Of a stretch of 64,000 bases of DNA, positions 31,281 through 45,787 are shown one piece after another; position 1 is the stretch's first letter, and the number at the start of each line of letters is the position of its first letter. A model generated the notes under the pieces. That model was given only the letters and a program-made list of their open reading frames with translations, made no database searches and was not told the DNA's origin. Source of the stretch: a virus; the IMG/VR virus record IMGVR_UViG_3300031963_000020, positions 64,001 to 128,000 of that record. One strand, given 5' to 3'. Made by a program: the position numbers and the translations under genes.

Positions 31281-34200
31281 ATGAGTTTATTAAAAGTCAA
31301 TAATATCGAACTTGCTACATCTGGTAGTACTAACGTTACATTTAATGACGACGTTACATTCGGTGCCGCAGTTAATATTTCTTCGGGATCTATCACAGCA
31401 AGTTTCGCTATTGCAAACGCATCTATCGAAAAAGAAAAACTAACAAATGACGCCAGAGACTTCGTAAATATTCTTAATAAACCAGCAGGTCTTATCAGTA
31501 GTTCTGGTCAGTTCGTTAGTGCAATTTCTGGTTCCTCTTTAGAACTTGGTGGTATATTAGCAACGGGTAGTATTAGAACAACGAGTGTATTTAGTGGTAG
31601 TGGTGCACAACTATTTGGAATTCCAAACGCAGCATTAAATAATAGTTCTATTACAATCAACGGTGGTGCAGTTTCACTCGGTGGAACTAGAACGCTTACC
31701 ACAAGTGATATTACAGAAGGAACAAATCAATATTATACTGACGCACGTGTAAAATCAAAATTAGATAGTGAAACCGTAGTCAGTAGTTCTGGTCAAATTA
31801 ATTATCAAGCTGTAACGGGGCAACCTACAGTTAATACGTTTGGTGGAGATGGTAATCAATCGTTTACTATTGTAAATGGTATTTTTATTAGTGCATCTGG
31901 TGGTGCAGATGGTATTATTGTCACAAACGATTCAGGTAACCAACTATTACGTTTTAGAACTGTTGGTGGAACAGTTTCGTCCTCCGCACAAGTAACAGCA
32001 GCATTACCTGCTGGTGTAGTATCAAGTTCAACACAAGTTCAACCATTACTTCCTGGTGGAACAGTTAGTGCATCGGCACAATACCCAGGATGGGTGACCG
32101 CATCAAGTCAAATTGATTATAACTCAATTACAAACAAATTAAGTGGTGTTGTTTCTACATCAGCACAAGTTCAACCATTATTACCAGCAGATACAGTTTC
32201 CGCATCAGCACAAGTTAAAGCATTTTTACCAGATGGAACAGTAAGTGCATCGGCACAATATCCTGGATGGATTACTTCATCTACACAAGTAGTTCAATCA
32301 TTACCTGGTGGAACTGTATCGGCATCGGCACAATACCCAGGATGGGTTACCGCATCATCACAAATAATTGTACAAAACACTACTGGTATTGGAGCTATAG
32401 CAACCACTGGATCAAATACCTTTATTGGTAATCAAATTATCTCAGGTTCTACAACAATTACTGGTGACTTAACAGTACAAGGAACCTCGTCTGTTACGTA
32501 TGTTACCTCGTCGCAACTTAACGTAGGATCAAATACCATTACACTAAATACTACCGATGTACTTCGTTACGGTGGGTTAACAGTATTTGATTCTGCTTCT
32601 GCTGGACAATCTGGTTCACTTCTCTGGGACAGTGTAAATAATGTATGGTTATATGTCCACGCAGGAACCAGTAATACCAGTAGTATATTGATTACAGGTC
32701 CGGAAAATACTGGTGCGTTGGGTAGTGAACAGTTCTTAACACCTAATTTATTACCAAAGGCTGGACTAACTGGTGACCACATTGTAAATTCACAAATTAG
32801 TGATAACGGAACACAAGTGGGTATCGTTGGTGGGCTAAAAGTTACAGGATCCATCACATCGTCTCATATAGTTCCCGCAGTTACTGATACCTTTGATTTA
32901 GGTTCACCAACCTTAAAGTTTAGAGACTTGTATCTTTCTGGTTCAACGTTATATCTTGGCTCATTAGCAATTAGAGATAATGGTGGTGCGTTATCTATTG
33001 GACCATCTGGGTCAGCAATTGGAACCAATTCACCTGTATCGGGTGCATTTACAGGATCATTCCAAGGTAACGGTAGTCAATTAACTAATATCGCAAATGC
33101 AGCACTTCCTGGTGGTATAATTTCATCATCAACACAACTACCAGCAGGTACAGTATCCGCATCGTCACAATATCCTGGATGGGTCACCGCATCAAGTCAA
33201 ATTGACTACAACTCAATCACCAATAAACTTTCTGGTGTTTTTAGCAGTTCAACACAAATTGCAAATAATTTACCAGCAGGTACAGTATCAAGTTCTGGTC
33301 AAATTAATGCAGGTGCAACAGCAAACTTTGCAACTGCAGTAGCAGCACAACTTGGTACAGTACACTCTGGTAGTTTTATGAGTACCGCAACTACTAATAA
33401 CTTACCAGAAGGTGTCACTAATCTTTACTACACGGATGCACGAGTAAAAACCAAGATGAGTGGTGATGTTGTTCATTCTGGTAGTTTCCTTGGTACCGCA
33501 ACCACTGATAATTTAACACAAGGATCAACTAACAAGTATTACGCAAATTCCTTAGTATTAAGTTATATTGACTCACTTTCAGTTCTCAGTAGTTCACAAC
33601 AAGTTGTCAATAGATTACCAATTGGAACAGTATCAAGTTCAAATCAAATTTCAAACGTATTAGTTACTAGTGCAAGTTACGCAGCAACTGCAAGTTTAGC
33701 ACTTGGGGTATCTGGGTCACTTGCGGTCAGTACTGATGGATTAAATGAAGGTAGCATAAATCTTTATTACACAGATGCACGAGTTAAGACCAAGTTAAAT
33801 GCAGAAAATGTACATTCGGCAAGTTTCTTAGGAACGGCAACCACTACCAACTTAACAGAAGGTATTAACTTATATTTTACCAATCAACGTGCGAAGGATG
33901 CACTTCCTGGGGTAGTATCATCGTCAGCACAAGTACCAACACTTCTTCCTGGCGGAACGGTATCATCATCAGCACAATATCCTGGTTGGGTCACCGCATC
34001 AAGTCAAATTGACTATAACTCAATACAAAATAAATTATCTGGTGTTATATCTTCTTCTACGCAAGTCAAACCATTACTTCCTGATGGAACCGTCACATCA
34101 TCAGCACAATATCCAGGATGGGTCACTAGTTCAACACAAGTTGTCTGGTCATCGGTTAACTACAACGCGGGTATCGTCAGTAGTTCTGGTCAAGTTCAAC

Positions 34201-34637
34201 CACTATTACCTGGTGGAACAGTATCATCATCAGCACAATATCCTGGTTGGGTAACAAGTTCTGGTCAAATTGATTACAACTCAATTACTAATAAATTAAG
34301 TGGAGTTGTTTCATCATCCGCACAGACAGTTGCATTAATTGCATCACAAGATATCGCACCGGCAACAGTAAATGCAACAACGATAAACGCATCTATCGTA
34401 ACAGCATCAAACTTAACTGCAAATCAAGCAGTATTTACAAATGGTAGTGATGGATTGGTCAGTAATGCAATTACCGGAACTGGTAATGTGGTAATGAGTG
34501 CAAGTCCAACGTTAACAGGAACATTTACGGCAGATAAATCAATTATGTCTGGTTCACAATTCTCGGGAATAGTATCAGGTAGTGGATTAGAGTATAGATT
34601 GGTGGTTCCTGTTGGAACTAATCAATACGCAACTTAA
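31281..34637 (+). CDS. Tail fibre-like protein with SSSAQ and NLYYTDARV repeats
   Basis: Repeats shared with the preceding fibres; C-terminus nearly identical to that of 26659..31167. Confidence 0.8.
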   Translation: MSLLKVNNIELATSGSTNVTFNDDVTFGAAVNISSGSITASFAIANASIEKEKLTNDARDFVNILNKPAGLISSSGQFVSAISGSSLELGGILATGSIRTTSVFSGSGAQLFGIPNAALNNSSITINGGAVSLGGTRTLTTSDITEGTNQYYTDARVKSKLDSETVVSSSGQINYQAVTGQPTVNTFGGDGNQSFTIVNGIFISASGGADGIIVTNDSGNQLLRFRTVGGTVSSSAQVTAALPAGVVSSSTQVQPLLPGGTVSASAQYPGWVTASSQIDYNSITNKLSGVVSTSAQVQPLLPADTVSASAQVKAFLPDGTVSASAQYPGWITSSTQVVQSLPGGTVSASAQYPGWVTASSQIIVQNTTGIGAIATTGSNTFIGNQIISGSTTITGDLTVQGTSSVTYVTSSQLNVGSNTITLNTTDVLRYGGLTVFDSASAGQSGSLLWDSVNNVWLYVHAGTSNTSSILITGPENTGALGSEQFLTPNLLPKAGLTGDHIVNSQISDNGTQVGIVGGLKVTGSITSSHIVPAVTDTFDLGSPTLKFRDLYLSGSTLYLGSLAIRDNGGALSIGPSGSAIGTNSPVSGAFTGSFQGNGSQLTNIANAALPGGIISSSTQLPAGTVSASSQYPGWVTASSQIDYNSITNKLSGVFSSSTQIANNLPAGTVSSSGQINAGATANFATAVAAQLGTVHSGSFMSTATTNNLPEGVTNLYYTDARVKTKMSGDVVHSGSFLGTATTDNLTQGSTNKYYANSLVLSYIDSLSVLSSSQQVVNRLPIGTVSSSNQISNVLVTSASYAATASLALGVSGSLAVSTDGLNEGSINLYYTDARVKTKLNAENVHSASFLGTATTTNLTEGINLYFTNQRAKDALPGVVSSSAQVPTLLPGGTVSSSAQYPGWVTASSQIDYNSIQNKLSGVISSSTQVKPLLPDGTVTSSAQYPGWVTSSTQVVWSSVNYNAGIVSSSGQVQPLLPGGTVSSSAQYPGWVTSSGQIDYNSITNKLSGVVSSSAQTVALIASQDIAPATVNATTINASIVTASNLTANQAVFTNGSDGLVSNAITGTGNVVMSASPTLTGTFTADKSIMSGSQFSGIVSGSGLEYRLVVPVGTNQYAT

Positions 34638-35517: not shown

Positions 35518-36183
35518 ATGAGTGTACAAATGTTTCGTGAGTTACAAGAACTAATCGATACGGCACAACACATAGTTATTGCTGTTATTGTGGCCGAAGG
35601 GTGTGAAAATTACAAGGGTAAATTCTTGACTGATTTGGAAAATCAAATCAAGGGTCAACAGAACCCAGTACATTTACACACCATTTGTTATCGTGAAGAA
35701 CCAATTATGTTTCCACGCCCAATGACACAAGCGGTGTATTATTTCGCACCAAAAAATTATACACCACTTTTTTATCGTCAAGGTGCAAGAGCGATGGACG
35801 CACCAATAGATATTGTAACGGCCATCAAAATGAGGCAGGGGATGTCCTATGCAGAGGCTGCATACGGTGCGGATAAGATGGAAAGTTACGAACGAACAGA
35901 AAATTTGGTAAAGAACGAAGATACATCAAAGTTTCCTTCATTGTTTCAACAAGCACGTAATTTTGCAAAAGAAATGTGGCACGCAGGTAAAAATGCAGCA
36001 GTTGGATTACCTGTATTAGTAGATGCGGATATTGCATACAATAGATTTGAAACGTGTCGTGGTTGTGAATTTTTAACACAAGATAGTTTTCGTTGTGAAA
36101 AATGTGGGTGTTTTATGAAAACAAAAACACAAATTGCAACTTCTTCATGTCCAATTGGAAAATGGCACGCTATAACGCAGTAA
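35518..36183 (+). CDS. Protein with C-terminal Cys-rich zinc-finger-like domain (DUF6171-like)
   Basis: RFETCRGC...CEKCGCFMKTK...CPIGKW. Confidence 0.6.
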   Translation: MSVQMFRELQELIDTAQHIVIAVIVAEGCENYKGKFLTDLENQIKGQQNPVHLHTICYREEPIMFPRPMTQAVYYFAPKNYTPLFYRQGARAMDAPIDIVTAIKMRQGMSYAEAAYGADKMESYERTENLVKNEDTSKFPSLFQQARNFAKEMWHAGKNAAVGLPVLVDADIAYNRFETCRGCEFLTQDSFRCEKCGCFMKTKTQIATSSCPIGKWHAITQ

Positions 36184-36228
36184 AAACAAAGTAGACAACT
36201 TGTTGGTGAATATTTATATTAGAATACT

Positions 36229-36960
36229 ATGTTAAGATTTTTTCCGTATAGAACATTTAGTTCGTCATTTGCATTCACGGGGTCCGCAGCACAAACTGCA
36301 TCATTCGTGCTGTCTGGAACCACCGCATCGTTTTCACTAACTGGTGGTGGTCCAACTGGTCCTGTTGGGCAAACGTCGGTAGTACAAGGTATTACAGGTG
36401 TATCAGGACCAACAGGTATAGGTCCAACAGGTCCACGTGGCACCACAGGTCCAACAGGCCCAAGATCAGCAACAGGTCCAACAGGACCAACTGGTATTAC
36501 AGGACCAACTGGCGCTACAGGAGCAACTGGAGCTGCATCAACTGGTCCAACAGGACCAATAGGAGTTTCAGGTAGTACAGGTCCAACAGGACCAACAGGT
36601 GCAACAGGTATTATCGGTATCACAGGTGCAACTGGTCCGACAGGAGCAACAGGTCCAAGTGGTCCAACAGGTATTCAAGGTATTGCAGGGCCGCAAGGTG
36701 TTACTGGTGCTACGGGTCCAACTGGTGCAATTGGTGTCGCAGTATCAGGTATCCAAGGTCCAACAGGTGTAACAGGGCCGTCAGGTCCATTTGGTTCTTC
36801 TGGTCCACAAGGTACAATTGGTGTTACAGGTCCAACAGGACCAACAGGTGCACAAGGAACCGCATTTACAGGGCCAACAGGTGCAACAGGTGCAACTGGT
36901 GCTACGGGTCCAACAGGAGCTGTGGGAGCTACTGGTCCAACTGGTGCGAACACACCATAA
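36229..36960 (+). CDS. Collagen-like protein 1 (FFP N-terminal motif)
   Basis: MLRFFPY...SSSFA then ~200 aa of G-X-Y. Confidence 0.85.
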
Positions 36961-36975
36961 TAGAGAGAAAGTGTT

Positions 36976-38619
36976 ATGACGTTTAAATTTTTTCCGTTCG
37001 GTGTACCAACTACTAGTTCGTTTGCAATAGGAGTCGGAGTAACAGCTACCGCATCTATTGCAATTAATAGTGGTTCTGCGTTCTCTACGGCGTCATACGC
37101 ACTGGGTGGGTCCACGGGTGCCACAGGTCCAAGTGGTCCGCAAGGAGCAACAGGTCCAACAGGTCCAACGGGTCCAACAGGCATTTCTGGATCAACTGGT
37201 GTTTTGGGTACTTCTGGTTCAACAGGACCACAAACGTCAGGGTCAACAGGTCCGACTGGACCAAGTGGTATTACTGGAGCAACAGGTCCAACAGGACCAA
37301 CTGGTATTACGGGTTCTACGGGTGTAATAGGTATTACAGGACCATCTGGTATTCGTGGTGCAACAGGTGCAACTGGAGCAACAGGTCCAACAGGCCCAAC
37401 AGGTAGTGTTGGTATAACTGCTGGTATCATAGGTGTATCAGGTGTTACAGGCCCAACTGGTTCATCTGGTCCAACTGGTGTACAAGGAAGCACGGGTCCA
37501 ACTGGTGTGGGGCCAACTGGAGCAACAGGTGCAACGGGTCCATCTGGTTCAGCAGGACCAACAGGACCAGTGGGACCAACAGGAGCAACTGGTGCAATCG
37601 GACCATCTGGATCTTCTGGTCCAAATACATTCGGAATAGTTGGTATAACTGGAGCAACTGGTCCTACTGGTGTTATCGGACCAACGGGACCACAAGGAAA
37701 CGCTGGTCGAGCTGTATTTTTCATAACAGGATCATGTAATCAAACACATTCCGATATCACCGTTCCTCACAGTGACGTTGCAGCAAGTCATACTGATATC
37801 GCAGCAGCACACACAGATACTACCATTAATGCATCACATAGTGACATTGTTACCACAACACCAGCATCACATACAGATAATACTACACCATTCGTAAATA
37901 CGACTATTAACGCATCACATAGTGACACAACAATTAATGCATCACATAGTGATATTGCGCATAGTAATATTACAATTAACGCCGCACATACTGATAATAC
38001 CACACCATTTAATAATATCGCATTTACTAATATTGCAAAATCACATACGGATATTTCACACAGCAATATATCACATACGAATATCGGAGCAGCACATACA
38101 GATAATACTACACCATTTAATAATATCGCGTTTAGTAATATTGCATTCACAAATACCACTATACCATTTAGTAACATAGGATTTAGTAATTCGTATACTC
38201 CACATTCAAACATTGCTAAAGGTGCAGTTCATAAAGACGATTACGGTCCACCAGCACATACAAATAGTACAACACCACATAGTAATATTGCATTCTCAAA
38301 CACAGGATTCTCTAACTCGTATACTCCACATACAAACGTGGGTCATACGGATATTGCGTTCTCTAATACAGGATTTAGTAATAGTTATACTCCACATACT
38401 AATATTGGTTCAGCTCACACCAACACTACAATCAACGCATCACACACAGATAATTACACGGCACATCAAAACGTAGCGCATGGAGATATACCGTTCGTGA
38501 ATAGTTATACACCGGCACAATGTTCGCAATGTCCTGGTGGAGATCCGTCTGAATGTGATTCGTTCTGTGAATGTTATCCAAACTGTGGTTGCTTCGGTAA
38601 TACGTGCATCGGTATATAA
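36976..38619 (+). CDS. Collagen-like protein 2 fused to (H/F)-x-(N/D) array and 8-Cys C-terminal domain
   Basis: MTFKFFPFG; ~200 aa G-X-Y; 38 (H/F)x(N/D) motifs; CSQC...[13 protein letters not shown]...C tail. Confidence 0.85.
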
Positions 38620-38645
38620 TAAATGTTTATAATAGGGAATAAATA

Positions 38646-39422
38646 ATGCCAGGTCCAACACATACAAATATAGGCCACTCCGATATAGCGTTTGAGAATG
38701 TCTACGCTGCGCATACTGATTTTACACAAAATCCGGCACACACTGACAATACCACACCATTTAATAATATTGCAGCAGCTCATACCAATATCGCTCATAG
38801 TAATCAGGCATTTCTTAATACTTCATTTAGTAATATAGCAAAATCACACACCAATGTATCACATACAAATATTGGGCATACAGACGGTACGGCAGCACAT
38901 ACAGACAACTATTCACCAGCATCGCATTTAGATAATACTAGTGCACACTCAAATATCGCAGCAGCTCATACAAATATTGCACATAGTAATATAGCAACAT
39001 CACACACAGATATATCTCACTCAAATATATCTCATACTAACATCGGTGCATCACACACTGACAATACCACACCATTTAACAATATTGCGTTTAGTAATAT
39101 TGGGTTCGTAAACACCACTATTCCACATACTAATATTGGTCACACTAATATAGGTGCAGCGCATTCAGATAATACAACACCAGCAGATCACAGCGATATC
39201 GCATTTAGTAATATTACGATTAACGCAAGTCACACGGATATTACAATCAACGCAAGTCACACGGATATTGCAGCATCACATACCGATACTACCATTAACG
39301 CATCACACACGAATATAGTAAGTACCACTCCAGCTTCACATACCGACAGTACAACACCATTTACAAATAGTACTACACCACACTCAAATGTTGCGGCCGC
39401 TCACAGTAACGCATTCCTATAA
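38646..39422 (+). CDS. (H/F)-x-(N/D) repeat protein, mirror partner of 36976..38619
   Basis: 38 motifs; spacing is the reverse of the upstream array at 34/37 intervals. Confidence 0.85.
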   Translation: MPGPTHTNIGHSDIAFENVYAAHTDFTQNPAHTDNTTPFNNIAAAHTNIAHSNQAFLNTSFSNIAKSHTNVSHTNIGHTDGTAAHTDNYSPASHLDNTSAHSNIAAAHTNIAHSNIATSHTDISHSNISHTNIGASHTDNTTPFNNIAFSNIGFVNTTIPHTNIGHTNIGAAHSDNTTPADHSDIAFSNITINASHTDITINASHTDIAASHTDTTINASHTNIVSTTPASHTDSTTPFTNSTTPHSNVAAAHSNAFL

Positions 39423-39428
39423 TACACT

Positions 39429-40292
39429 ATGTCGCAATTTTTTCCACTAGGTACACCAACAACTGCAAGTACAGCACTTATCAGTAGTTTAGCATTTACC
39501 GCAACGTATGCTGTGAATGTGAATGTGTTGACAGCATCATATGGTCCTGGACCAACTGGACCACAAGGTGATAAAGGACCAACAGGACCACAAGGTGCAA
39601 CTGGATTGGCAGGGTCAGGTTCTACAGGACCAACGGGCGCAACAGGTCCAACTGGGCTAACTAGTTCAGGTCCAACAGGTCCAACAGGACCGCAAGGTGT
39701 AATCGGTATTACTGGTATTACAGGCCCAACAGGTGTCACAGGTTCTACAGGCCCAACAGGTCCAATAGGAATTACTGGTGTAATTGGTGTTACAGGTATT
39801 TCTGGTGTAACTGGTATTGCTTCATTTACTTCGGGTTCCACAGGCGCTACTGGGCCAACTGGAGCAACAGGTGCTACTGGTGTGGTGGGTATTACTGGTG
39901 CAACTGGTATTATTGGAATCACAGGACCAACAGGATTGACTAATTTGGTGGGCATTACAGGTCCAACAGGTCCAATAGGATTACCAACCACGGGTTCTAC
40001 AGGTCCAAGTGGTCCACAAGGAGCAACTGGTGTTGTAGGTACTGGTGGTGTTTCTGCAGGAGCGGCGGCATCTGGAGTCATCGGTATTACGGGTATTACT
40101 GGTGTACAAGGTACCACAGGACCGCAAGGAAGTCGTGGTGTGGACGCCGAATGTCCAGCAGGATTTGTAACCTGTACGGAAGGGGCTCCGTCATCGGGGT
40201 CAAATACATATACAAACCCAAATAGTAGTATATATTCTGTGGTTTGTGCCGCAAGACCAGTAGGTTGTTTAGGAACATTTACGTGTGTATAA
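39429..40292 (+). CDS. Collagen-like protein 3 with Cys-containing C-terminal domain
   Basis: MSQFFPLG; ~200 aa G-X-Y; CPAGFVTC...C...C...C. Confidence 0.85.
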
Positions 40293-40364: not shown

Positions 40365-41558
40365 ATGGCTAAAGCACCTGGTAGTATTTGGGTAGATGGT
40401 GAAACCTTTAGATTTATTGACGCAACTGGAAACGAGTACTATTACACTGGTACTGCGGGGTCTAGTCCTGCGGGAGCTAAGGCTGGTTCAATTTGGGTAG
40501 ACGGAAATGATTTTCATTATATTTCTGCTACTGGTGTTGACCGTACAATTGCATACACCGATTTGGGTGTAGCAGCGGGATCAAAACCAGGTTCAGTATG
40601 GGTGCAAACCACATTCTGGCAATGGATATCATCGGCAGGAAACGCTCGTCGTGGTCACACCGACGTAACAGCAGCACACACCGACAATACCACCCCAGCA
40701 TCTCACACAGATATTGCATTCGTTAATACTACAATTAACGCGGCACACACAGATACTACAATCAACGCAAGCCATACAGATATAGCAAAAGCACACACGG
40801 ATAACACAACACCAAATAGTCACACGGACAACACTACTCCGTTCAATAATATTGCGTTCGTTAATACTACAATCAATGCCGCTCACACGGATAATACAAC
40901 GAACGCAAGCCATACAGATATAGCAAAAGCACACACGGATAACACAACACCAAATAGTCATACTAACAGCTATACTCCACATAGTAATGTCGCACACACC
41001 AATATTGGTGCAGCGCACACGGACAACACTACTCCGTTTAATAATATCGCATTCACTAACACCTATATTGGTAACAGTCACACCAACAGTTATACTCCAC
41101 ACAGTAATGTCGCACACACCAATATTGGTGCAGCGCACACGGACAACACTACTCCGTTTAATAATATAGCATTTACCAATTCATATACAGGTAATAATCA
41201 CACTAACAATTACACACCACACACCAATATCGGTCACAGTAATATCGGTCATACTAATATCGGATTTAGTAACATAGCATTTAGTAATATTGGATTTACC
41301 AATACAACTATCAATGCATCACACACAAATATCAGTCATAGTAATATTGGTGTATCGCATACAAATATCGGTCATAGTAATGTTGGATTTAGTAATTCGT
41401 ATACTGGACACACAAACATTGCACATAGTAATATAGGCGTATCGCATACAAATATTGGACATAGTAATGTTGGATTTAGTAATTCGTATACAGGATTTGT
41501 AAATTCTTACACACCACAAAATCACACAAATTCGTATCAGGGTGGTCCTTCAGCCTAA
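40365..41558 (+). CDS. Protein with three GS(I/V)WV repeats and a 44-motif (H/F)-x-(N/D) array
   Basis: KAPGSIWVDG, KAGSIWVDG, KPGSVWVQ; array from 40656; SD GGAG. Confidence 0.85.
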   Translation: MAKAPGSIWVDGETFRFIDATGNEYYYTGTAGSSPAGAKAGSIWVDGNDFHYISATGVDRTIAYTDLGVAAGSKPGSVWVQTTFWQWISSAGNARRGHTDVTAAHTDNTTPASHTDIAFVNTTINAAHTDTTINASHTDIAKAHTDNTTPNSHTDNTTPFNNIAFVNTTINAAHTDNTTNASHTDIAKAHTDNTTPNSHTNSYTPHSNVAHTNIGAAHTDNTTPFNNIAFTNTYIGNSHTNSYTPHSNVAHTNIGAAHTDNTTPFNNIAFTNSYTGNNHTNNYTPHTNIGHSNIGHTNIGFSNIAFSNIGFTNTTINASHTNISHSNIGVSHTNIGHSNVGFSNSYTGHTNIAHSNIGVSHTNIGHSNVGFSNSYTGFVNSYTPQNHTNSYQGGPSA

Positions 41559-41578: not shown

Positions 41579-42484
41579 ATGAATCATAGTAATTCGACAA
41601 CACCAGCATCACATACGAACATCGGTGCATCACATACTAATATCGGGTTTAGTAATGTGGGGTTTAGTAATAGTTATACTCCATTTTCAAATGTTGGGTT
41701 CGGTAATGTCAATGCATCACATACTGATATTGGATTTAGTAATGTGGGATTTGCAAATTCTTACACACCATTTAGTAATGTAGGGTTTTCCAATAGTTAC
41801 ACACCAAATTCACACACTAATATTGCACACAGCAATATTGGTCATAGTAATATTGGATTTAATAATATTGCGTTTAGTAATATCGCATTTGGTAATATTG
41901 CAAGAACACATACCGATAACACTACAAATGCAAGTCATACCAACATTGGTCATACAAATATTGGTGCTGCACACACGAATAACACCACACCATTTAATAA
42001 TATAGCGTTTAGTAATATTGCGAAGGCACACACAGATAACACTACAAATGCAAGTCATACCAATATCGCGCATACAAATATTGGTGCTGCACATACGGAT
42101 AACACCACACCATTTAATAATATAGCGTTTAGTAATATTGCGAAGGCACATACGGACAATACTACAATTGCCTCACACACGGACAATTACACTCCGCATA
42201 CAAACACTACAATTAATGCGGCACATACCGACAATACAACACCAGCATCACATACGGATATCGCACATACTAATATTGCTGCAGCACATACGGACAATAC
42301 TACTAACGCAGCCCATACGGACAATTACACCCCGCATACAAACACTACAATTAATGCCGCACACACGGATACCACAATCAACGCAAGTCATACCGACATT
42401 GCGCACACTAATACAACAATTAATGCTGCACACACGGATAACACCACACCACATAGCGACCAACCAGTATTTGTTGGTCCATAA
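41579..42484 (+). CDS. (H/F)-x-(N/D) repeat protein, exact mirror partner of 40365..41558
   Basis: 44 motifs; 43/43 spacings are the reverse of the upstream array; SD AAGGA. Confidence 0.85.
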   Translation: MNHSNSTTPASHTNIGASHTNIGFSNVGFSNSYTPFSNVGFGNVNASHTDIGFSNVGFANSYTPFSNVGFSNSYTPNSHTNIAHSNIGHSNIGFNNIAFSNIAFGNIARTHTDNTTNASHTNIGHTNIGAAHTNNTTPFNNIAFSNIAKAHTDNTTNASHTNIAHTNIGAAHTDNTTPFNNIAFSNIAKAHTDNTTIASHTDNYTPHTNTTINAAHTDNTTPASHTDIAHTNIAAAHTDNTTNAAHTDNYTPHTNTTINAAHTDTTINASHTDIAHTNTTINAAHTDNTTPHSDQPVFVGP

Positions 42485-42549: not shown

Positions 42550-43869
42550 ATGACTATTGAATTAGAACCAGTTGGTGTAGTATGTAATTTAAGTTGCCCG
42601 TATTGTTACGAACATCCCATGCGAGATGCGGGTAATTTCCGACATAAAACATATTCCGTTGAAAAAATGTTAGAAGGTCTTGCCAAAGAAGGTGGTAATT
42701 TTACCCTCTTTGGTGGTGAACCATTATTAACTGATATTGACGATTTAGAAACTATTTTTAAGTGGGGGTTTGACCGATATGGATTTAATGGTATTCAAAC
42801 AAATGGTGTTTTAATTACTGACCGCCACATAGAAATGTTTAAGAAGTACAGAGTTCACGTCGGAATATCACTTGATGGTCCTGACGAAATGAACGACACG
42901 CGTTGGGCAGGGTCATTAGAAAAGACCAGAGAGGCTACCCGCAAGTCATTTGAAGCTATTAAAAAGTGTCTTGACAACAAGCTCTCACTTGGTTTAATTA
43001 TTACTATCCATAAGAAGAACGGATTACCAAAATATCGTGAACGTTTCAAGGCATGGATTAAAGAACTTCAGTCGTGGGGTGTTGATGGAGCAAGACTTCA
43101 TCCACTAGAGATTGACCATAGTTCTGTTGGTGAAACATTAGCTCTTACACCAGAACAAAATATTGAGTTCCTATTAGATATGTGGGACTTTGAAATCAGT
43201 GAACTAAATGTTCCTGGTAAGAAATCATTTCAGTTTGATATCTTCCGTGACGTAGAATATATGTTGCGTGCAGACGATGCAAACGCAACCTGTACATTTA
43301 TGACTTGTGACCCATATACCACGCATGCGGTGCAAGGTATTGACTCGCAAGGTAATAAAGCAAACTGCGGTCGTGGTAACAAAGAAGGTATTAACTGGAT
43401 TAAAGCCGATGTTGACGGATTTGAACGTCAGATGGCACTATATAATACACCACAAGAACATGGTGGATGTCAGGGGTGCCGATTCTTTATTATGTGTAAG
43501 TCACACTGCCCAGGTACAGGTGCAGATATGGACTGGAGAAATAGAACGGATACCTGTATGAATTGGAAGGTAGCGTTTAGTATCTATGAACGAATGATGG
43601 TTGAACGTGGTGAGATGCCATTATCTCTAGACCCAAAATTAAAGAGATATGAAGATATTTTGATGTATGGTTATAGTAGAGGTGCAGAACTTAGATTAGA
43701 ACACATTAAAAAGTATCTTGACCCAAATATTGGATTTGATATTGAAAGATACATCCAATCATATTTGATGAACCAAGCTATGGGTGGACACAAGCCACAC
43801 GCAGACCATACAGATGAAACAGGAAGATACGCATTAGAGTTTAAAGAGAAGTACGGATATTTACCTTAA
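42550..43869 (+). CDS. Radical SAM enzyme with SPASM-type domain (putative peptide/protein maturase)
   Basis: CNLSCPYC (CxxxCxxC), FGGEPLL, QTNG, ISLDG; C-terminal CTFMTC, NCGR, CQGCRFFIMCKSHC...C auxiliary-cluster cysteines. Confidence 0.92.
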   Translation: MTIELEPVGVVCNLSCPYCYEHPMRDAGNFRHKTYSVEKMLEGLAKEGGNFTLFGGEPLLTDIDDLETIFKWGFDRYGFNGIQTNGVLITDRHIEMFKKYRVHVGISLDGPDEMNDTRWAGSLEKTREATRKSFEAIKKCLDNKLSLGLIITIHKKNGLPKYRERFKAWIKELQSWGVDGARLHPLEIDHSSVGETLALTPEQNIEFLLDMWDFEISELNVPGKKSFQFDIFRDVEYMLRADDANATCTFMTCDPYTTHAVQGIDSQGNKANCGRGNKEGINWIKADVDGFERQMALYNTPQEHGGCQGCRFFIMCKSHCPGTGADMDWRNRTDTCMNWKVAFSIYERMMVERGEMPLSLDPKLKRYEDILMYGYSRGAELRLEHIKKYLDPNIGFDIERYIQSYLMNQAMGGHKPHADHTDETGRYALEFKEKYGYLP

Positions 43870-43887: not shown

Positions 43888-44286
43888 ATGATACCAGGAT
43901 TACACGCAGACCACGTTGACACATCGGGTGCATATGGTCAAAAATTTGAAGTCGTAAAAGACTTGTTAGAAAAAGGAATGTTGAAAGAAATTCCAGAAGA
44001 ATTCCGTGATAAAGGAAATACTTCCGAAGAAGTTCCGGTTATTACTAATTCACAAACAGTTGTTGGTAATCAGCAATCGGGATGGGATATGTCTCGTGAC
44101 CATGCCGACCACGTTGACGAAACTGGTCGTTATGCACAATCGTATATGGAACGATTTGGTTCGGATTCCTTAAATAATAACGAAATTTCACAAGGAACTA
44201 CAGAACAACAGCAAGATACTGGTAATTCTTGGAAGTCTTTCTTGAAGAAGATTATTGCAGAAGAAAAGAGTAAGTTGAAGGTTTAA
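43888..44286 (+). CDS. HADHxD-repeat accessory protein
   Basis: HADHVDTSGAYG and HADHVDETGRYA, matching the radical SAM C-terminal HADHTDETGRYA. Confidence 0.75.
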   Translation: MIPGLHADHVDTSGAYGQKFEVVKDLLEKGMLKEIPEEFRDKGNTSEEVPVITNSQTVVGNQQSGWDMSRDHADHVDETGRYAQSYMERFGSDSLNNNEISQGTTEQQQDTGNSWKSFLKKIIAEEKSKLKV

Positions 44287-44305: not shown

Positions 44306-45787
44306 ATGCAAAGAATAAAGCATGTCTTGCCTGATTGGACTCGGGTGCAGTGGACTTCTATAGAAAATAGAAACAAATACGAACCTATCATTGCGTCTAT
44401 CAATAACGCATGGAAACAGATTGAACGTATGTCGGTTGTTCACGATATTCGTCCATCTTCACTAGATATATTATCACCAGAAGAACTCATAAATTTAACT
44501 GCGGAATACGAAAAACATGGAGTACTCGTAGTTCCTATTGGTAAAGAAGGAAAAGCAGGAACTTACTCGTCTACAAGTACACCATATAATGGTGGTGATT
44601 ACAATATTCGTGTTGTATTCACAAAGTCTGAAGCTATAGCAGATGAATGGTTTAATATCTGGCAAGCAGAACCCCGCATTCGTGACCGTGAGGCTGGTCG
44701 TTTACTTGGGTATCCTACCTGCTGCACCAATCATTTTATGAAGTATTGGGTAGACCAGGAATTTGTTGATACTACGTGGACGATGGCAGCGGAAAATATG
44801 CAGTTAAATGATGACGATGAAACGCATCGTACTATTCATATTAAGGCAGATACTCCACCTGAAGCAAACATAATGTGGCGTTGGCAAGGTGTACGATTGG
44901 TATCACATCTTCCGTGTTCGTTTGATTGCAAGGCAACAGAAGAACTTGGTATGAAGATGGCAGAACTTGGTCGTACACTTGGGTTTGAAAAAGAAGTAAA
45001 TTGGATATATGAATTACTTTCGTGGCCTGTTGAATGGTCAGCACTGCATGGTATCGCAGAAATCCGTACACCAATCAACAAGATTTCATCCAGAACTGAT
45101 ATGACCCCGTGGAAGTATGTGGTACAGAAGCATGCACACGAATATCCTATTGATGGTATGTCTGGTATAACGTATCCGTATAATCAAAAGAAAATTAAAG
45201 TCAAACCCGTCACAAAAACTATCTCGTTCGCTAAATCTCTTGAAGATACTTCCGTATGGGAAGAAAACGGATTTAGTAATAAGGAAGCTATGGATCACTT
45301 CCACCAAGTTATCATTGACGCAATCGGGGATATGAAATATATTCCTGGTGGTAATGTCCTCGACCTCGGTTGTGGAAATGGTGTCTTGTTAGGTCGTGTA
45401 GTTGGAGACAGATTTGATCTCATCCCACACGGTGTTGAAGCAGACCGTCAACGTTGTATGTCCGCAGCAACTACCATCCATTGGGGTGTCTTTACAATGG
45501 GTAGCATCTTTGACCTTAATACGTGGAAGGAAGATACATATAGTTTGGTACTTTTGATGCCAGGCAGACTTCTTGAAACCACACGTGTAGTATCAGAACA
45601 AGTGCGTAAGCAACTCTATGACAAGACAGACCTTGTTCTTATCAACCTAACTTGTGATTGGACACAACAATATGGCTCGATTGAGAATATTATGAAGGTC
45701 ACAGGTCTTGACCAAGAATGGGAACCAGCAGGTAAGTTAATCCATCGTCAAGATGATATGGCACAACTTTTCAAGCGTAAGGTGTAA
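44306..45787 (+). CDS. Cys-motif domain (DUF483-like) fused to class I SAM-dependent methyltransferase
   Basis: RLLGYPTCC and SHLPCSFDC motifs; VLDLGCGNG motif I followed by GVE. Confidence 0.7.
   Translation: MQRIKHVLPDWTRVQWTSIENRNKYEPIIASINNAWKQIERMSVVHDIRPSSLDILSPEELINLTAEYEKHGVLVVPIGKEGKAGTYSSTSTPYNGGDYNIRVVFTKSEAIADEWFNIWQAEPRIRDREAGRLLGYPTCCTNHFMKYWVDQEFVDTTWTMAAENMQLNDDDETHRTIHIKADTPPEANIMWRWQGVRLVSHLPCSFDCKATEELGMKMAELGRTLGFEKEVNWIYELLSWPVEWSALHGIAEIRTPINKISSRTDMTPWKYVVQKHAHEYPIDGMSGITYPYNQKKIKVKPVTKTISFAKSLEDTSVWEENGFSNKEAMDHFHQVIIDAIGDMKYIPGGNVLDLGCGNGVLLGRVVGDRFDLIPHGVEADRQRCMSAATTIHWGVFTMGSIFDLNTWKEDTYSLVLLMPGRLLETTRVVSEQVRKQLYDKTDLVLINLTCDWTQQYGSIENIMKVTGLDQEWEPAGKLIHRQDDMAQLFKRKV

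Follow-up and report, generated by a model that had tools for sequence, protein, structure and literature searches.

In a virus represented by the IMG/VR record IMGVR_UViG_3300031963_000020, two adjacent genes encode proteins in which the spacing of a short repeated motif in one is very nearly the reverse of that in the other. These genes, which we will refer to as A (36976..38619) and B (38646..39422), are located on the + strand of the stretch of DNA analysed in this work (64,000 nucleotides, positions 64,001 to 128,000 of that record; hereafter the window), and the question that they raise is why two separate proteins should be mirror images of each other in this respect. The explanation that we favour, and which we consider probable, is that A and B constitute a split out-and-back fibre, in which two antiparallel strands would lie in residue register on a collagen stalk and would probably be matured by the adjacent radical S-adenosylmethionine (SAM) system. 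No description of this architecture was found in the literature that was searched.

Mirrored Spacing of the Motif Arrays

The 547 amino acid (aa) product of gene A, as delineated from the list of open reading frames (ORFs) and from matches to Pfam and to PHROG collagen-type tail-fibre families, comprises an FFPxGxPTT anchor, a collagen GXY stalk (aa ~45-255), an array of motifs that we regard as the outgoing strand, and a Cys-rich end that is the probable tip. A preliminary description of this region, made from the DNA letters and their translations, had placed the array on a collagen stalk, and the match of this part of A to the Pfam Collagen family (PF01391; 83.6 bits, the cut-off being 27.2; E=8e-24, from aa 45-98 onward) bears this out. 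The array (37747..38502, aa 258-509) is made up of [H/F]-x-[D/N] motifs in units of 5, 7, 9 or 11 residues, and it is followed by the Cys-rich C-terminal tail (38515..38619), whose likely role as the distal tip was deduced by comparison with the linkers of fused orthologues (see below). The protein encoded by B (258 aa), the putative return strand, consists almost wholly of its motifs and has the conserved C-terminus HSNA[F/Y]L.

A search with the regular expression [HF]x[DN] recovered 38 motifs both in the array of A and in B; a single further match in A, FGN, is a stray one within the Cys-rich tail. The successive intervals between the motifs of A are 7,7,7,9,11,7,9,9,5,9,7,5,7,5,5,7,7,5,5,7,5,7,9,9,7,5,5,7,5,5,5,7,7,9,7,5,5, and all of the intervals in both proteins are odd. 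When the intervals of B are reversed, they are identical to those of A at 34 of the 37 positions, the exceptions being a swap of 9,11 for 11,9 and a single 9 vs 7. The motif counts and these mismatches are exactly those of the preliminary description. In local alignment, A and reversed B gave a score of 65, compared with 28.8 +/- 3.4 (maximum 44) for shuffled lists, which corresponds to a z of about 10; none of the 2000 shuffles reached this score. The forward comparison of A with B scored 29, which is the chance level, and the comparisons of arrays with their own reverse were likewise at chance.

A sister pair of genes on the same strand, C (40365..41558; an N-terminal three-repeat domain, then 44 motifs forming the presumed outgoing strand) and D (41579..42484; the presumed return strand, with 44 motifs and the family-wide HSDQPVxVG at its C-terminus), is mirrored at all 43 of its 43 intervals. 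The spacing of A/B is unlike that of this pair, as had been remarked earlier for the pair at 40.6-42.5 kb, and the non-cognate combinations scored at chance in local alignment (33 for A with D and 37 for C with B). The register was also assessed by a second test, in which the strands were slid rigidly past each other, residue by residue. For C/D, 44 of the 44 motifs coincided in one register, with 17 coinciding in the runner-up. For A/B, the coincident motifs were divided between shift 0 (22 motifs) and shift 2 (15 motifs), which indicates a single 2-residue bulge in A, and for the non-cognate pairs the number of coincident motifs was at most 14. The offsets between partners are always even, and total length is preserved, with the register being either restored or held constant.

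No inverted DNA repeats were found when these were looked for in 37747-39422, and the mirror is therefore present at the protein level only; a DNA palindrome as its origin was rejected for this reason. Translational read-through fusing A to B or C to D was also considered and judged unlikely, because the reading frames differ and each gene starts with an ATG of its own after a short AT-rich spacer.

Mirrored Arrays in Related Loci

Related loci (designated below by L numbers) were obtained from 22 viral contigs that were retrieved by means of the radical SAM protein, and the mirror was assessed in those with enough sequence. The motif arrays adjoin the radical SAM gene in nearly all of those contigs that have enough flank, and the spacing is mirrored with a separate pattern in each locus, viz. 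45/45 in L005, 42/42 in L006, 37/37 and 18/18 in L007, and 31/33 in L009. The edit distance between an outgoing array and the reversed return array is 1-4 within a locus, compared with 8-21 for orthologous patterns of different loci and 10-21 for outgoing vs return arrays across loci. Such distances indicate that changes in spacing have been compensated many times. The generality of the rule, which the preliminary description had surmised, is thus upheld, as the mirror recurs in all adequately sampled related loci and in Thermus phages.

The partner strands occur both in cis and in trans. In L011 and L012 both arrays are part of one chain, and their spacings are exact palindromes (101/101 and 39/39, respectively) with a longer central unit. 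In L007 (4859-6481) and L009 (5510-7081), the A+B orthologue is a single chain consisting of collagen, outgoing array, Cys-rich linker and return array, which ends in HSNA[F/Y]L as B does; the return array of the L007 fusion is the one mirrored 18/18. The Cys-rich tail of A matches the Cys-rich linker of these fusions in both position and kind. This fused architecture suggests that the tail of A is the distal tip and that B is the returning strand, and the presence of two orthologues in which A and B are joined through such a linker argues that A/B is a split out-and-back fibre.

Other arrangements of the strands are also found. In L014 (709-1305 and 1373-1933), a C-type hairpin has been independently split into two genes, mirrored at 11/12, and the return-strand gene has an N-terminal Cys-rich domain, so that the tip knob would be on the opposite partner as compared with A/B of the window. 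In L005 (3965-5086 and 5090-5839) and L006 (4231-5361 and 5365-6036), a TAA together with a new ATG divides the outgoing A into two parts (A1 and A2), both of which are spanned by B. The tail of A1 (8,7,9) and the head of A2 (9,7,7,9) at this nick are unpartnered on B and roughly mirror each other, which hints at a three-strand junction, the stretch being too short for statistics.

An exhaustive HMMER search with C identified 286 clusters, and hairpins made of a single chain, palindromic in their spacing and ending in H.DQPV..G, are numerous among them. Across the 286 clusters of this family, conservation is highest in the N-terminal domain of C (40365-40650), with its three GS[IV]W[IV]xG...Y[IL]D repeats, and the same three-repeat domain is present at the N-terminus of the Thermus phage protein Cumys_13. 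The latter has 57 HxD motifs with near-palindromic spacing in blocks of equal summed length, and another Thermus phage protein, phiLo_137, has 81 motifs with mirrored spacing (z=13.9). In the Thermus phage arrays, which form hairpins within a single chain, the units have 3-7 residues and are almost purely HxD, with hardly any Phe; in the relatives, the first motif position is occupied by Y and W besides H and F. The homologue search with B recovered three proteins; at least two of these, P0151 and P0004, are fragments of the A type that have the Cys-rich tail at their end. Among 50,697 phage records, no match was found by megablast of the 10 kb region or by tblastn of B.

These results also bear upon why the spacing is irregular. 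According to the preliminary description, the spacing acts as a barcode that lets each strand find only its own partner, and one may envisage that irregularity evolved chiefly so that strands recognize their cognate partner among those co-expressed. The presence of two trans pairs with unrelated patterns in one genome accords with this, as does the coincidence of cognate strands at 37-44 rungs, which is far above the <=14 seen for non-cognate pairs or shifted registers. However, in most of the relatives the two strands are part of a single chain, and such hairpins (the fused A/B of L007, and the homologous proteins P0002, P0023 and P0102), in which there is no partner to be searched for, keep an irregular matched spacing. 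This indicates that the spacing is in the first place a structural or register requirement of an antiparallel duplex; it is doubtful, though possible, that partner choice was its chief cause, and discrimination between partners in the split forms is plausibly a by-product. The hairpin in L011 is largely periodic, and as it belongs to a different clade it provides no clean test of this point.

Complementarity of Facing Motifs

The strands also correspond in residues that would face each other. All 22 Phe motifs of A/B (13 in A and 9 in B) are opposite His, as had been reported earlier, with no F-F rung (hypergeometric P = 0.0125), and in C/D also no Phe is opposite Phe (P = 0.0013). Among the 15 seven-residue rungs of A/B, Pro is present in 9 linkers of A and in 5 of B, and these never coincide (P = 0.002). 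Asp is found in 23/32 cases where His faces His vs 6/22 where His faces Phe (Fisher P = 0.002). When nine pairs were pooled, the 314 rungs consisted of 131 H/H, 181 F/H and 2 F/F, although these pooled counts overstate independence because the loci are phylogenetically related. The H/H rungs were HD/HD in 71 cases, HD/HN in 53 and HN/HN in 7, and thus at least one Asp was present in 124 of the 131; the F/H rungs were FN/HN in 149 cases, with 32 in the remainder. In the pooled 7-residue units, a Pro-ending linker (xxTP) was opposite one of the Ile/Ala type 77 times, neither linker had Pro 15 times, and both had it once. In the symmetric register, the Ile at unit position 4 faces Gly/Ala or Pro of the partner, and this feature and the even offsets would fit a beta-ribbon-like duplex with the facing residues on one face.

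The distribution of Asp and Asn is open to a different explanation, in which the rungs of the ladder are held by metal bound to His and Asp of both strands (in a manner similar to a 2-His-1-carboxylate site), the Phe/His rungs serve as non-metal spacers, and the radical SAM enzyme does other work or modifies only a subset of the motifs. The frequent Asp on His-His rungs and Asn/Asn on Phe/His rungs (149/181), the significant difference within A/B, and the nearly pure HxD arrays of the Thermus phages are all consistent with such binding, and iron coordinated by His is found in phage fibres such as T4 gp37. However, over half of this clade's rungs include Phe and Asn and are unable to bind metal, and what the residues in the first position (H, F, Y, W) have in common is an aromatic ring rather than a metal ligand. 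Further, the close linkage with a radical SAM gene would be left unexplained, and the HxH motifs of phage T4 gp37 (discussed below) have no mirror. We therefore regard a ladder held by metal as unlikely.

Shared DNA Blocks in A and B

Two blocks of DNA are common to A and B, both in forward orientation. One is of 124 nucleotides with 77% identity (37783-37906 vs 39252-39375) and the other is of 218 nucleotides with 73% identity (38014-38231 vs 38973-39190). The spacing in the longer block (7,5,5,7,7,5,5,7) is nearly self-palindromic and hence a forward copy of it still meets the mirror. The shorter block contains 9,11, and its forward copying yields exactly the 9,11 vs 11,9 swap that is seen between A and B; this swap is also present in L005/L006. 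A plausible route by which partner strands co-evolve would be the transfer of blocks between the partner genes, followed by selection on register.

The shared forward blocks could also be cited in favour of the arrays folding independently, e.g., each as a pentapeptide-like beta-solenoid, with the mirror being a by-product of repeat evolution, and weak Pfam pentapeptide matches, both below the gathering score, are found for B (18.7 vs 38 bits) and C (19.7 vs 26.4 bits). However, a mirror at the protein level cannot come from DNA duplication or inversion, inverted repeats being absent from the region searched, and the mirror has been kept through 8-21 compensated changes between loci. It is also accompanied by the Phe/His and Pro/no-Pro complementarity, and a regular 5-residue coil is incompatible with units of 7, 9 and 11 residues. 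Independent folding of the two arrays is thus highly improbable.

The Radical SAM Module and the Proposed Chemistry of the Arrays

The array genes are followed on the + strand by a gene for a radical SAM/SPASM enzyme (42550..43869), one for a small protein of 132 aa (43888..44286), and one in which a DUF483 domain (with a GYPxCC motif) is fused to a class I SAM methyltransferase-like region (44306..45787). A homologue of the latter is located 3' of the radical SAM gene in Thermus phages, and no solved relative of the DUF483 protein was found in the PDB. The linkage also holds in the converse direction, as all 3 of 3 contigs retrieved via array proteins have a CxxxCxxC gene immediately downstream, with a DUF483-like gene in one of the three. 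In the distant locus L025 (9941-14854), where the radical SAM protein is 41% identical, two radical SAM and two DUF483-like genes are located 5' of a 20-motif hairpin.

The enzyme matches PF04055 (58.3 bits vs 29.5) and contains CNLSCPYC, the CxxxCxxC motif, at aa 12-19. A regular expression for the SPASM-type CxxCx5CxxxC matches this enzyme and all of the homologues examined; the Pfam SPASM model gave no match to the window enzyme at E<=0.01. Its C-terminus (43795-43869) ends in HxDHxD, in the form of a substrate-like HADHTD (~nt 43798-43815), and this ending is conserved from the present clade as far as the Thermus phages, the C-termini of the L001 and L002 enzymes being among those compared. 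The 132 aa protein, which is found in all close-clade loci and has a conserved C-terminal helix, bears HADHVD twice, in two HADHVD..G.Y motifs. The HxDHxD tail could be involved in self-modification, act as a pseudo-substrate, or serve for docking.

All 76 motifs of A and B have the form [H/F]-x-[D/N] and fit the aromatic-X-X3 grammar. In known triceptides, links are formed from Trp/Phe to C-beta of Asn/Asp, from Tyr to Asp, and from His C2 to C-beta of residue i+2, and the enzyme HtkB accepts a His-to-Phe swap (PMC11002830, PMC11499958). The motif grammar of the arrays matches this cyclophane chemistry, and on this basis the arrays may be subject to modification. The window enzyme is below every cut-off for the curated cyclophane-synthase families in NCBIfam (score/cut-off: YhhB 65/445, AmcB 58/425, GrrM/OscB 48/310, FxsB 45/370, XyeB 38/450); its nearest neighbours in that collection include anSME and DynA, with the alignment covering the N-terminal core only, and its best matches in the PDB are anSME followed by the triceptide synthase ChlB. 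Although the aromatic-x-Asn/Asp grammar beside a SPASM radical SAM gene (PMC11002830) would also be expected if the arrays were precursors of peptides made on the ribosome and modified after translation (RiPPs), cleaved to small cyclophane peptides with no structural role, this is scarcely credible given the collagen stalk, the conserved anchor domains, the location at the end of the tail-fibre genes, the lack of an exporter or protease in the genes that were examined between 34656 and 47889, and a mirrored spacing that would be purposeless.

Comparison with Known Systems

As in the systems of the triceptide synthases (XncB, OscB, YxdB, HaaB, YhhB, HtkB, and ChlB), the putative substrates here have aromatic-x-X3 motifs and the enzyme is a SPASM radical SAM protein. 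However, the triceptide substrates are short leader-core peptides, whereas those of the present system are 250-870 residue proteins of the virion type that contain 38-102 motifs. The candidate substrates in the window are of 258-547 aa with collagen or anchor domains and do not resemble short leader-containing precursors. The partner genes also differ, encoding here a DUF483-methyltransferase and an HxDHxD protein, and the mirrored two-strand design is without a triceptide counterpart.

The HXS antiphage system, in which HxsA with its five His-x-Ser repeats is matured by the radical SAM proteins HxsB/HxsC, is similar in that radical SAM maturation of a protein with tandem His-x-small-polar repeats extends beyond short peptides (PMC13128918). 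However, HXS belongs to the defence systems of bacteria, its features including a peptidoglycan-binding domain, export to the periplasm and a modification of +8 Da (PMC13128918), whereas the present system is phage-encoded and has tens of motifs in mirrored pairs that end in D/N and not S. PADLOC gave only generic viperin-like radical SAM matches and no HXS, its 2023 library possibly predating that system, and no Hxs family was present among the NCBIfam matches listed or reached its cut-off.

In tblastn comparisons of the window with the Thermus phages Cumys, phiMa, and phiLo, the radical SAM proteins were 45-51% identical and the DUF483 proteins 29-32% identical, and in the Cumys-type module these homologous genes adjoin an Hx[D/N] array protein. 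In the published account of this module, its function was left open, DNA modification was proposed, and the repeats and the mirror are undescribed (PMC11437467).

Among structural proteins, the nearest analogies may be T4 gp37 and the arms of SMC coiled coils, both of which differ from the arrays in motif and fold. The long-tail-fibre needle of T4 gp37 is reported by Bartual and colleagues (2010) to be an out-and-back chain in which iron is bound by HxH motifs; it is similar to the proposed fibre in that the chain runs to the tip and back with His-x-His-type motifs. As the spacing of its seven HxH motifs (32,14,37,14,9,9) is unmirrored, gp37 was rejected as a precedent for the mirror. In addition, the motifs in the window are Hx[D/N] or FxN, gp37 has no radical SAM partner, and no homology was found. 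An Atlas feature search for B gave values <0.9, with the lead to gp37_trimer (0.81) being within noise. In SMC/Rad50 proteins, the two long arms of one assembly form antiparallel coiled coils, and an interruption in one arm has its counterpart at the mirrored position of the other. These arms consist of alpha-helical heptads, whereas the arrays are non-helical, rich in His/Phe/Asn/Asp, contain Pro, occur in cis or in trans, and have a predicted dedicated maturase.

Structure Predictions and the Proposed Fibre

The structures of relatives of these proteins were also predicted with AlphaFold2. In the model of P0002, a hairpin relative of 199 aa, which was based upon a 46-sequence alignment, the N-terminal three-repeat domain had a predicted local distance difference test (pLDDT) value >90 and a short strand at the extreme C-terminus had a value of ~89; this confidently modelled strand would fit with the end of the chain returning to its start. 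Foldseek of this model against the PDB yielded no match at E<=0.001. A wide VIA fold search with the three-repeat domain had as its best result (Z 3.8) the beta-prism II lectins (LlpA, Marasmius lectin, and curculin), which is a weak lead. A complex prediction for A (residues 250-547) with B, using small alignments, gave an interaction prediction score from aligned errors (ipSAE) of 0.00; as the fold of the partner was uncertain, this result weighs neither for nor against pairing.

According to the explanation that we favour, the collagen stalk of A would bear an outgoing strand of 38 aromatic-x-Asn/Asp units up to the Cys-rich tip, from which B would return antiparallel and in residue register, with its HSNA[F/Y]L end located at the stalk-array junction. 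Every unit of A would be opposite a unit of B of equal length and the pairing would be complementary, with Phe opposite His, a Pro-ending linker opposite an Ile/Ala linker, and Asp on the His-His rungs. The aperiodic unit lengths would set one register and, in split forms, also disfavour a wrong partner. The radical SAM/SPASM enzyme, aided by the DUF483-methyltransferase and the HxDHxD protein, would most likely modify the motifs post-translationally, and our best guess is that a triceptide-type C-C bond is formed from the aromatic ring to C-beta of Asn/Asp, which may stiffen or lock the ladder.

Several results weigh against this explanation, in addition to the relatedness of the pooled loci noted above. 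The array region of the P0002 model had a pLDDT of ~50 even with the alignment, and the hairpin of L012 (9079-9939), predicted from a single sequence, had a pLDDT of 40. As no curated cut-off is reached by the radical SAM enzyme and only its N-terminal core is aligned, epimerisation, oxidation or other chemistry is possible. That the occurrence of Asp or Asn depends upon which residue it faces points to electrostatics across the strands or to the binding of metal, and a cross-link within the motif leaves this dependence, by itself, unexplained. Lastly, it is only the type of domains and the position of the genes that point to incorporation of these proteins in the virion.

In a broader and more tentative form of the favoured explanation, A/B and its relatives could represent a sequence-programmed protein duplex, in which antiparallel strands hybridise by means of a code of unit length, Phe/His and Pro/Ile-Ala, in cis or in trans and perhaps also in three-strand junctions (L005/L006), and are then covalently stapled by the radical SAM enzyme. 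Such a duplex would be to proteins what strand pairing is to nucleic acids, and phages would use it to make fibres of adjustable length, a proposal that we put forward with considerable reserve.

Genomic Setting

The window is part of a viral record of 148 kb and contains a myovirus structural module, consisting of a portal, a major head protein and a tail sheath followed by three giant fibre-like proteins. The head protein is ~52% identical to its counterparts in Flavobacterium phage immuto and Microcystis phage Mel-JY01. Downstream of the giant fibres are the collagen, array and radical SAM genes, all on the + strand. A fibre-like protein of 1118 aa (31281-34637) contains many copies of a ~40-residue repeat, and a protein of 221 aa (35518-36183), Cys-rich in its C-terminal DUF6171 domain, is encoded directly 5' of the collagen/array genes.

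Two other collagen paralogues flank the A/B pair on the + strand. The first of these (36229..36960) has the same N-terminal anchor motif as gene A, and the third paralogue (39429..40292), recognized from the ORF list and Pfam, has a Cys-containing C-terminal tail. The FFPxGxPTT N-terminal motif is common to all three paralogues (36229-36960, 36976-37740, and 39429-40292). Three long ORFs on the opposite strand (36675-37724, 36219-36623, and 39401-40117, all -) are PVG-rich; they are the shadow of the GXY codons of collagen on the reverse strand, and it is very unlikely that they represent genes.

Implications

If the strands pair as their covariation implies, this would constitute a new principle of protein assembly, in which both the register and the partner are specified by a readable one-dimensional code and the connectivity of the chain at the tip is dispensable. 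These proteins would also be the first virion structural proteins to serve as RiPP-type radical SAM substrates, with tens to a hundred sites per chain, and a function would be provided for viral DUF483 proteins and for the "rSAM module" that cultured Thermus phages carry. The duplex would further offer a designable scaffold, in which the length of the fibre would follow from how many matched units there are. As Cumys, phiMa, and phiLo are Thermus phages in culture, this idea is directly testable.

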